64,000 nucleotides of DNA from Melioribacter sp. (lineage in GTDB: Bacteria; Bacteroidota; Ignavibacteria; Ignavibacteriales; Melioribacteraceae), in the NCBI GenBank assembly GCA_020723965.1, contig DYHW01000002.1, forward strand, positions 464,198-528,197, given 5' to 3'. The translations under genes were made by a program, and so were the position numbers. Every line of letters begins with the position of its first letter. The first letter of the stretch is position 1. The notes under the pieces are model-generated. The model was not told the DNA's origin. It worked only from the letters and a program-made list of their open reading frames with translations, and ran no database searches. Below are positions 5,399 through 8,676 of this stretch, in pieces.

Positions 5399-5563
5399 AT
5401 CTTTCTCCCTAATACTTTATGGAAATTTAGTCGTTAATTATGCCACAATTTCAGTGGTTGTATACTTCTGTAATAGTTTCTGCCATACATACATTTTTTT
5501 GATTGAGCGGGTAAAAAGCTGCTAATTCATTTATTTCAAATAACTTATTCAAAAAAAACATTT

Positions 5564-5579
5564 TGGCATTCTCATTGTA
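5564..5579 (+). promoter_or_regulatory. Candidate sigma-54 (-24/-12) promoter TGGCATTCTCATTGTA upstream of hsp20-dnaK-hsp20
   Basis: Matches TGGCAC-N5-TTGC with correct GG-to-G spacing, but has T instead of C at -12. It lies about 43 nt upstream of the hsp20 ATG. The same TGGCAT-N5-TTGT variant occurs at 15838. By-eye scanning found no other copy in the window. Confidence 0.55.
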
Positions 5580-5621
5580 ATAAAGAATGCAGAAAAAAAA
5601 TAAAATCAATTGGAGGACACT

Positions 5622-6056
5622 ATGACACTCATTAAATTTGAACCCTTAAGAGAACTCGAAACTCTTCAGGACAGAATCCAAAGATACTTTGATGATTTTT
5701 CAAACTTTGGAATCAATTTTAGCGATAACTTTTACCCGAAAATCGATATCTCGGAAGATAAAAACAACATAAATGTTACAGCAGAAATTCCAGGTGTAAA
5801 GAAAGACCAAATAAAAATTACACTGCAAGATAATATTTTGACAATAGAAGGGGAAAAGAAAAAAGAAACAAAAGAAGAGGGGAAAAACTTCTACAGAAGC
5901 GAAAGAATTTTCGGCTCTTTCAAACGCTGCTTCACACTTCCGGCTCAAGTCGATTCCGAAAAGGTTGAAGCAAAATTCGAAGACGGAATGCTTCATGTTC
6001 AGTTGAAGAAGATTGAAACAAAAGCAAAGAATGAAAAAGTTATCGAGCTAAAGTAA
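5622..6056 (+). CDS. Small heat-shock protein, Hsp20/alpha-crystallin family
   Basis: Alpha-crystallin domain (PKIDISEDKNNINVTAEIPGVKKDQIKI ... GMLHVQL). The ATG at 5622 follows a GGAGGA RBS. The ORF-track TTG at 5610 overlaps that RBS. Confidence 0.9.
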   Translation: MTLIKFEPLRELETLQDRIQRYFDDFSNFGINFSDNFYPKIDISEDKNNINVTAEIPGVKKDQIKITLQDNILTIEGEKKKETKEEGKNFYRSERIFGSFKRCFTLPAQVDSEKVEAKFEDGMLHVQLKKIETKAKNEKVIELK

Positions 6057-6101
6057 TAGCTTCAGCTCTTCATATATTTCTTATAAAAAGGAGAAAAAGA
6101 A

Positions 6102-8036
6102 ATGGGTAAAATAATTGGAATCGATCTTGGAACAACAAACTCTTGTGTTGCAGTGATGGAGGGGAATGAACCAGTTGTAATTCCAAACTCGGAAGGAGGA
6201 AGAACAACACCTTCTATTGTTGCTTTTACAAAAACAGGCGAAAGATTAGTTGGACAGCCGGCAAAAAGACAAGCCGTTACAAATCCTAAAAACACCGTCT
6301 ACTCAATTAAAAGATTTATGGGAAGAGTTAGAAGCGAAGTTAACCGAGAAGAGAAAGAAGTTCCTTATGAAGTAGTTGCCGGCGAAAATGATTCGGCTCG
6401 TGTTAAGATTGGTGATCGTCTCTATTCACCTCCGGAAATAAGCGCAATGATTTTACAAAAAATGAAAAAGACGGCAGAAGATTATCTCGGTCAAGAAGTT
6501 ACAGAAGCTGTGATTACTGTTCCTGCTTATTTTAATGATGCACAAAGACAAGCTACAAAAGATGCAGGTGAAATTGCGGGATTAAAAGTTAGTAGAATTA
6601 TCAACGAACCAACCGCTGCTGCTCTTGCATACGGTTTAGATAAAAAACATAAAGATCAAACTGTGGCTGTTTATGATCTTGGTGGCGGCACTTTCGATAT
6701 TTCAATTTTGCAGTTAGGAGAGGGTGTCTTTGAGGTTAAATCGACTAACGGCGATACACACCTTGGAGGCGATGATTTTGATCAGCGCTTGATCGATCAT
6801 CTTGCAGATGAATTTCAGAAATTGGAAGGAATTGATTTACGCAAAGACCCGATGGCTCTTCAACGTTTGAAAGAAGCTGCCGAAAAAGCAAAGATTGAAT
6901 TATCTTCTTCGGTGCAGACAGATGTAAATCTTCCTTTTATTACTGCTACACAAGATGGGCCGAAACACATGAACATAGCTTTGACACGCGCTATGTTTGA
7001 ACAGTTAATAGACGATTTAATCGAAAACACAGCAGGACCGTGCGAACGCGCTATGAAAGATGCCAGCGTTACTCCGTCTCAAATTGACGAGGTAATTTTA
7101 GTTGGCGGTTCTACTCGTATTCCTAAAGTTCAGGAACTTGTAAAAAAGCTTTTTGAAAAAGAACCGCACAAGGGGGTAAATCCAGATGAAGTAGTTGCCG
7201 TTGGAGCTGCTATACAGGGTGGTGTGCTTGCCGGCGATGTTAAGGATGTTCTTCTGCTCGATGTTACTCCGCTTTCGCTCGGCATCGAAACTCTTGGCGG
7301 TGTAATGACGGTCTTAATACAGGCAAACACTACGATCCCAACTCGCAAGAGCGAAGTCTTCTCAACCGCATCAGATAATCAGCCATCGGTTGAGATTCAT
7401 GTTCTTCAAGGGGAAAGACCTATGGCAGCAGATAATAGAACGCTTGGCAAATTTCATCTTGATGGAATTCCTCCCGCACCGCGCGGCATTCCTCAAATTG
7501 AAGTTACATTCGATATAGATGCTAACGGAATTTTGCATGTTGCAGCTAAAGACAAGGCAACTAACAAAGAACAGAGCATTAGAATAACTTCATCAAGCGG
7601 TCTTTCAAAAGAAGAAGTTGAAAAGATGAAACAAGTTGCTAAAGAACATGCTGCAGAAGATAAAAAGAAAAAAGAGACAATTGAGATTAAAAACCAAGCT
7701 GATAATCTTGTCTTTCAAACTAAGAAGCAGATTGATGAATTGAAGGATAAAATAACAGCTGAGCAAAAGAGCAGATTAGAAAGTGAAATTCAAAAAGTAG
7801 AAGATGCGTTAAAAACAAACGATACTGAAAAAATTAAATTGGCAACTGAAAGTTTAACAAAAGTATGGAATGAAATAGCTCAGCAGCTTTATCAGCAGCA
7901 AGGTGCTGCTGGTCAACATGCCGGCGAACCGGCAGGAGCCGAATATCAAGCCGCTGGTCAGCAAACTTCTCAAGAAAAGAAAAAGGATGAACGAGACGTT
8001 CAAGATGCATCCTATGAAGTTGTTGATGATAAATAA
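6102..8036 (+). CDS. dnaK: Molecular chaperone DnaK (Hsp70)
   Basis: [21 protein letters not shown] and VGGSTRIP motifs. 644 aa. Confidence 0.97.
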
Positions 8037-8211
8037 TTGTTAAAGTCGGGTCCTTACTCTGCTGCACAACTTGTTATGAATTAAGGAAGGTGCTGAAACT
8101 TTGATGTTTACTGCGAATGTTGCAATGACTATACTTCCACGCGTTGAAGTTTTTTAAAAACTAATTATCAACAAAGTAAAAATAAATGAAAAAAAATAAA
8201 TGGAGGTTAAA

Positions 8212-8604
8212 ATGACCAATCAAAAAGAGATGGTTGAAACAAAAACAACCAAAAGTTGGGATGAAGCTTTGGAAAAAGAATCTTGGATAGCGCCGCTTGT
8301 GGATATTTACGAAACAGCGGATGATTATTACTTATCAGCCCAAATGCCCGGCGTTAAAAAGGAAGATGTTAAAATCAAACTCGAAGATGGCAATCTTGTA
8401 ATAATGGGAAGGACTAACTACGATGAAATAATTAACTGTAAATTCGTTTTGAAAGAAACAGAACTCGGAAACTACTATCGCCATTTCAAAATCTCTGAAG
8501 GTGTTGACGAGCAAAAAATTGATGCTAAATTAGAAAATGGTATTCTCAACATAAAACTTCCAAAACACGAACGTGTAAAGCCAAAGACGATTGAAATTAA
8601 GTAG
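8212..8604 (+). CDS. Small heat-shock protein, Hsp20 family (second paralogue)
   Basis: Alpha-crystallin domain (PLVDIYETADDYYLSAQMPGVKKEDVKIKL ... GILNIKLPK). The ATG at 8212 lies 5 nt after GGAGG. Confidence 0.85.
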   Translation: MTNQKEMVETKTTKSWDEALEKESWIAPLVDIYETADDYYLSAQMPGVKKEDVKIKLEDGNLVIMGRTNYDEIINCKFVLKETELGNYYRHFKISEGVDEQKIDAKLENGILNIKLPKHERVKPKTIEIK

Positions 8605-8645
8605 TTTTAAGTCAGAGAATAGTTTGATATTTACTATCTTGAAAA

Positions 8646-8676
8646 GAATCCCTGCTATAAGCAGGGATTCTTTTTG
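8646..8676 (+). terminator. Rho-independent terminator after the second hsp20
   Basis: Perfect 10-bp stem GAATCCCTGC/GCAGGGATTC with loop TATAA, followed by TTTTT. Confidence 0.8.

Follow-up and report, generated by a model that had tools for sequence, protein, structure and literature searches.

The hsp20-dnaK-hsp20 genes in a 64,000-nucleotide stretch of a Melioribacter sp. genome (GenBank assembly GCA_020723965.1, contig DYHW01000002.1, positions 464,198 to 528,197; the whole stretch is henceforth called the window) very probably sit behind a sigma-54-type promoter. A first-pass annotation had proposed such a promoter from the letters of the window alone, and the proposal is now supported by comparative evidence and by the precedent of transcription start site (TSS) mapping in Flavobacterium psychrophilum. 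In our numbering the window is G000:C10:464198-528197, and it belongs to a genome of 2.76 Mb with 36.5% G+C. The class Ignavibacteria, from which this genome comes, falls within the phylum Bacteroidota according to GTDB.

The predicted -24/-12 promoter, TTGGCATTCTCATTGTAAT, lies at 5563..5581 on the + strand (18.1 bits; GG at 5565-5566, TTGT at 5575-5578). Its core string TGGCATTCTCATTGT occupies 5564-5578 of the + strand, beginning with T5564, and ends 43 nt ahead of the ATG of the first hsp20 gene at 5622. By the spacing rule for sigma-54 boxes, GG and a TTGC-like element stand exactly 10 nt apart (TGGCAC-N5-TTGC); the TGGCAT-N5-TTGT found here has the right spacing and matches 9 of the 10 consensus bases, in agreement with the first-pass description of a box with this fit at this distance from the start codon. 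Transcription is predicted to start near 5590, because standard -24/-12 geometry places it there. When the genome was scanned with a 19-nt box matrix derived from 15 Ignavibacteria sites, the hsp20 box emerged as the fourth-best hit genome-wide, against a background of 218 hits of at least 11 bits over both strands (5.5 Mb). Taken alone, the string is nevertheless weak evidence; what truly supports the promoter is that the string is conserved at orthologous loci. For the exact variant, the earlier estimate of about 0.1 chance copies is consistent with base composition; for the looser pattern TGGCAY-N5-TTGY shuffling gave an expectation of 0.44 in the window, with at least two copies in 6 of 100 shuffles. 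Genome-wide there are 10 copies of the exact TGGCAT-N5-TTGT where composition predicts about 6, and 5 of the 10 copies, one at dps included, are non-coding while half lie inside genes; the exact string was therefore dropped as stand-alone genome-wide evidence.

Conservation was assessed in 80 dnaK loci from Ignavibacteria and other Bacteroidota, all of which were scanned with the same matrix, a score of at least 12 bits counting as a hit. The motif TGGCA[CT]-N5-TTG[A/C/T] was found at the same place, at a fixed distance, in 68 of the 80, and the bases flanking the box vary among the conserved loci. All 14 related loci in which hsp20 precedes dnaK carry TGGCA[CT]-N5-TTGN roughly 45-70 nt from the first ATG, and outside the Ignavibacteria-like group 51 of 54 loci have a hit, almost always 40-90 nt 5' of the dnaK ATG. 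Chance cannot explain this conservation, because just 218 hits of at least 11 bits exist in the whole of the genome under study. The comparison also bears on the single departure from the consensus, namely GT rather than GC at -12. Of the 51 Bacteroidia-type sites, 32 have A after TTG, 11 have T and 7 have C; since TTGA and TTGT prevail over TTGC, the mismatch seen at first pass is the norm of the phylum and reflects a relaxation throughout the lineage, not a fault of the hsp20 site in particular. Retention of the motif upstream of orthologous hsp20-dnaK or dnaK genes and the presence of rpoN in the genome had both been named at first pass as checks on the proposal; the former is borne out by the 68 loci, and the latter by a PF04552 hit (194 bits) in a 492-aa frame.

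A further line of evidence comes from the region preceding the box. Gibbs sampling of the 60 nt preceding the box in 53 loci (52 of L029-L082, plus L045) recovered from Bacteroidia dnaK loci a 15-nt motif, CTGACATTTTTGCAT, summarised as CTGNCA-N5-KCAT, which in Flavobacteriia takes the form of a clean dyad, TGACA-N5-TGTCA. In Bacteroidia the 3' end of the motif lies either 10-12 nt from the box or, in another set of sites, 21-22 nt from it, and this offset of one turn indicates face-of-helix phasing. The matrix of this motif was built without the window, yet it matches the window twice: a predicted distal activator site, ATGCCACAATTTCAG, at 5440..5454 (+ strand; 12.0 bits), 123 nt before the -24 box, and a predicted proximal one, CTGCCATACATACAT, at 5480..5494 (+ strand; 12.1 bits), 83 nt before it, the two being 40 nt apart. 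Related Ignavibacteria have comparable pairs, at about -140/-103, -131/-83 and -139/-88. Sites of at least 11 bits occur at 0.124 per kb in the genome, at which density the chance of two in 150 nt is about 2e-4. Only two site pairs spaced 20-60 nt exist genome-wide. One belongs to the hsp20-dnaK promoter, and no other intergenic sigma-54 hit has such a pair; the second pair (C8:261898) falls inside a coding region. A wider regulon marked by a box together with a site pair was considered and rejected, hsp20-dnaK alone having both.

The sigma-54 holoenzyme is unable to open DNA alone and requires an ATP-driven enhancer-binding activator. The window genome encodes 10 such activators, recognised as PF00158 proteins, and across the 80 loci no activator gene adjoins dnaK. 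We consider one of the ten, a 367-aa protein encoded at G000:C8:140910-142013, to be the probable activator of hsp20-dnaK. This protein has no sensor domain: it starts directly with the AAA+ domain, contains GSFTGA and a Fis-type HTH (HTH_8); its gene is followed by that for LptE. In a census of PF00158 carriers in 401 sampled Bacteroidota genomes every genome had at least one activator, and three (G006, G127 and G255) had exactly one. In these three rpoN is present, and the box and an upstream site are both retained at dnaK or its operon. Their sole activator must serve dnaK because sigma-54 promoters need an activator; in each case it is sensor-less and the reciprocal best hit of the 367-aa protein, scoring 280-317 bits to it as against 188-253 bits to the other nine activators of the window genome. 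The assignment is carried over to the window genome by orthology and by the shared site motif. The same gene pair is listed in F. psychrophilum as THC0290_0733/0732 (PMC9723704), and our literature search found no named sigma-54 activator of heat shock in Bacteroidota. Autoregulation of the sensor-less activator was considered and rejected, an upstream site being present in just 3 of 17 loci. The intergenic region upstream of its gene contains a box pointing away from it, ATGGCATAGCCATTGCCGT at G000:C8:142116-142134 (+ strand; 18.3 bits), after which no open reading frame of at least 60 aa occurs within 300 nt.

The genes behind the predicted promoter encode, all on the + strand, a small heat-shock protein A of 144 aa (hsp20, 5622..6056; Pfam HSP20, E = 2.7e-25), an Hsp70 of 644 aa (dnaK, 6102..8036; Pfam HSP70, E = 4.8e-272) and a small heat-shock protein B of 130 aa (hsp20, 8212..8604; Pfam HSP20, E = 4.4e-22). 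The first ATG is preceded by GGAGG. Gaps of 45 nt (hsp20/dnaK) and 175 nt (dnaK/hsp20) separate the genes, the Pfam coordinates agreeing with the spacing given at first pass, and neither gap holds a sigma-54 box. The two hsp20 genes are the sole HSP20 genes in the genome, and in a regular-expression search of open reading frames of at least 80 aa the dnaK frame alone carries the Hsp70 word DLGGGTFD. The DnaK of the window is 86% identical to that of a Melioribacter roseus genome, the next-best matches being to Ignavibacteriales and Melioribacteraceae genomes, and the second hsp20 gene is likewise found downstream of dnaK in 10 related loci. An intrinsic terminator, GAAAAGAATCCCTGCT-ATA-AGCAGGGATTCTTTTT, follows at 8641..8676 (+ strand) as a 16-bp stem and then a U-run. 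A simple terminator scan missed this hairpin, but folding shows it to be strong (-23.6 kcal/mol), and no convincing terminator lies upstream of it within the operon, which upholds the earlier view that a strong hairpin ends the operon and that none comes before it.

The remaining heat-shock genes of this genome appear to be wired differently. The groES-groEL genes are preceded by TTGACA-N17-TAATAT and then by a perfect CIRCE element, TTAGCACTC-N9-GAGTGCTAA, at C12:260386, which is the only match in the genome at up to 1 mismatch per arm. That genome-wide scan found no CIRCE upstream of hsp20-dnaK and none at the separate hrcA-grpE-dnaJ operon on C5 (C5:91255-94107). The observation made at first pass that hsp20-dnaK lacks CIRCE accordingly stands, but an HrcA/CIRCE circuit does exist in the genome, at groESL. 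Among sampled genomes, 35 of 37 from this class encode HrcA, as do roughly half of those from elsewhere in the phylum. By TIGR02392 the genome has no RpoH, since the best score, 163 bits, falls short of the 323-bit cut-off. No sigma-54 box was found before groES, clpB, lon, clpC, dnaJ/grpE or hslU (best score at most 6.7 bits), and a box hit of 11.7 bits falls within the groES coding sequence. Heat-shock control is, as judged from these elements, split between a predicted sigma-54 arm for hsp20-dnaK-hsp20 and a predicted HrcA/CIRCE arm for groESL. A MerR-type gene preceded by a sigma-54-like box (14.3 bits; G000:C8:300231-303527) was considered as an HspR and rejected, as it heads an operon of the sulfide:quinone oxidoreductase/DsrE type. 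The genes downstream of it, named from reading of their sequences, are sulfide:quinone oxidoreductase-like, DUF1641-like, TusE/DsrC-like and DsrE-like.

Textbook heat-shock control relies either on sigma-32 or on the repressors HrcA and HspR, and the first-pass annotation had regarded sigma-54 control of dnaK as unusual. For this lineage it is not: such promoters have been mapped (PMC9723704) and predicted (PMC12316311), and the sigma-54 layout that we predict here is shared across the whole phylum Bacteroidota, real but not new. TSS mapping in F. psychrophilum placed a sigma-54 motif, SM4, before groESL, lon, dnaK, grpE-dnaJ, htpG and clpB, and three candidate activators were noted in the same study (Guerin et al. 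2021, PMC9723704). Predicted sigma-54 promoters were found to be enriched before the genes for IbpA/Hsp20, DnaK, GroES/EL, GrpE and DnaJ in Bacteroidota and Planctomycetota (Carrera-Reyna et al. 2025, PMC12316311), a paper in which Sabree et al. 2009 is cited for sigma-54 dependence of grpE and groES. Among those targets are the two kinds of gene, hsp20 and dnaK, found at the present locus; the text of the survey makes no reference to Ignavibacteria and gives neither an enhancer motif nor an activator for these genes.

The window genome resembles F. psychrophilum, a member of the same phylum as GTDB defines it, in having the -24/-12 box directly before dnaK and in having a gene for a sensor-less sigma-54 regulator adjoining lptE, and it shares the TGNCA-type upstream sites with Bacteroidia dnaK loci. 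It differs in that the Flavobacterium box also precedes groESL, grpE-dnaJ, htpG, clpB and lon, whereas here it is confined to hsp20-dnaK-hsp20, groESL having instead a sigma-70-type promoter and CIRCE. Also unlike the situation in Flavobacterium, dnaK is flanked here by the only two hsp20 genes of the genome, and the upstream sites lie at -83/-123 rather than at -10 to -22. In other bacteria the HrcA/CIRCE and sigma-32 systems act on the same physiological targets; here HrcA and one CIRCE, that of groESL, are present, whereas hsp20-dnaK is without CIRCE and no RpoH scores above the cut-off. A more distant parallel is the PspF/PspA system of E. coli, which likewise combines a sensor-less activator with a stress operon and a sigma-54 promoter, and by analogy with which control through a partner protein may be expected. 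In this case cytoplasmic chaperones take the place of membrane-stress genes as targets, the activator gene lies beside lptE, and a link to PspA was neither found nor tested.

A second, separate sigma-54 promoter is predicted in the window at 15837..15855 (TTGGCATATGACTTGTCTT, + strand; 15.8 bits) before the genes for Dps and a 1-Cys peroxiredoxin. Its core string TGGCATATGACTTGT at 15838-15852, 31 nt from the dps ATG at 15883, is the one further copy of the variant in the window, and its reported position, 15838, by stress genes and an activator gene, proved correct. The neighbourhood spans 14210-17080, and the promoter is divergent from a gene for a GAF-AAA+ sigma-54 activator (14210-15709). 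A palindrome, AACGA-N4-TCGTT, lies upstream of dps at 15751-15764 of the window, and both box and palindrome are kept in all 8 orthologous loci (L124-L131). The predicted dps site is a separate sigma-54 regulon and no part of the chaperone unit, and the adjacent GAF activator presumably serves it. Elsewhere in the genome, the best matrix hit of all is TTGGCACAATGATTGTCTA (21.6 bits; G000:C8:402299-402317, minus strand), which is followed by about 95 nt with CUCCUU and CCCUCCUU words and then by an intrinsic terminator, with no open reading frame; this locus could encode a sigma-54-dependent small RNA with anti-Shine-Dalgarno words. Another box, TGGCATATCAATTGT at G000:C10:31141 (minus strand), is located immediately 3' of a PAS-AAA+ activator gene (C10:31307-32641) and 46 nt ahead of a gene for a 457-aa lipoprotein containing a CxxCH word.

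Several observations weigh against the reading of the locus as one sigma-54 unit driven by the 367-aa protein. The canonical GC at -12 is absent from the hsp20 box, the sites in the window are moderate (12 bits) with a degenerate second half-site, and co-transcription of the second hsp20 over the 175-nt gap is an assumption. The window genome has ten activators, so that the argument from single-activator genomes transfers to it only via orthology and the shared motif; and upstream of the sensor-less activator gene there is no consistent site or sigma-54 box (site in 3 of 17 loci). In one alternative the box would be a chance or vestigial look-alike and the operon would be read from a weak sigma-70-type promoter nearby, for example at TAAAAT (5601-5606), which matches TATAAT in five of six positions. 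The lack of enrichment of the exact string and the missing GC fit this explanation. We consider it very improbable, given that position and sequence of the box persist across the phylum while its flanks vary, that start sites in Flavobacterium map to the same motif, and that the TAAAAT has no -35 partner at usable spacing, a promoter scan of the + strand from 5400 to 5621 having returned no sigma-70-type promoter.

Acceptance of the sigma-54 promoter leaves room for a different activator, namely one of the nine sensor-bearing proteins (of the response-regulator, PAS or GAF type), and here the multiplicity of activators in the genome, the lack of an autoregulatory site at the sensor-less gene and the displacement of the sites to -83/-123, as compared with -10/-20 in Bacteroidia, by which the wiring could differ, all have some force. 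However, the site motif is of the same type phylum-wide, genomes with a single activator keep the orthologue of the sensor-less protein, and the GAF activator of the window has another palindrome, AACGA-N4-TCGTT, which is kept at dps, its own target. We therefore regard a sensor-bearing activator as unlikely, although it is the most serious of the alternatives. A role of the TGNCA sites as repressor operators or as sites for a DNA-bending protein, and not as an enhancer, appears more doubtful still. It would suit the Bacteroidia loci, in which the proximal site ends 10-12 or 21-22 nt from the box, nearer than classical enhancers, with a phasing like that of an architectural or repressor site; but the Ignavibacteria pairs lie 80-145 nt upstream, at classical enhancer distance, and the TGACA-N5-TGTCA dyads of Flavobacteriia are those expected of a dimeric Fis-type HTH.

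Under the favoured reading of a sigma-54 promoter with a sensor-less activator, RNA polymerase with sigma-54 would start a single hsp20-dnaK-hsp20 transcription unit from the box at 5563-5581, with the first nucleotide near 5590, and the unit would end at the 8641-8676 hairpin, all three genes being co-transcribed. The activator, most likely the 367-aa AAA+/Fis-HTH protein, would bind the CTGNCA-N5-KCAT sites at 5440-5454 and 5480-5494 and loop over the A/T-rich spacer to the promoter. Because this protein is without a signal-receiving domain, we propose that it is probably restrained by a partner protein, much as PspA restrains PspF. Free chaperone (DnaK/Hsp20) is an attractive candidate for this partner, because the operon would then be under feedback from unfolded protein. 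The start site, the co-transcription of the three genes, the binding activator and the sensing of heat or misfolding are steps that we infer. These considerations raise the possibility, which we put forward tentatively, of one joint scheme in which the LptE-linked sensor-less activator would govern cytoplasmic protein quality control as its master regulator throughout Bacteroidota, Ignavibacteria included, acting via CTGNCA-N5-KCAT enhancers and restrained by free chaperone in place of a sensor domain. In such a scheme the Ignavibacteria would represent an intermediate state, with the activator controlling hsp20-dnaK only and HrcA/CIRCE controlling groESL, and the Bacteroidia would have lost HrcA and moved the chaperone set to sigma-54.

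Bacteroidota are now documented to use a third heat-shock design, based on sigma-54 and an ATP-driven activator, in which the activator and the sensing step are as yet unnamed. The present locus leaves this picture unchanged and would extend the design to Ignavibacteria. It also suggests that a single genome can combine the sigma-54 design with HrcA/CIRCE, the only dnaK found and the only two hsp20 genes being on the predicted sigma-54 arm and groESL on the HrcA arm. To the existing picture the locus adds, besides this extension and this coexistence, a 15-nt enhancer motif with helical phasing and a specific candidate for the activator.

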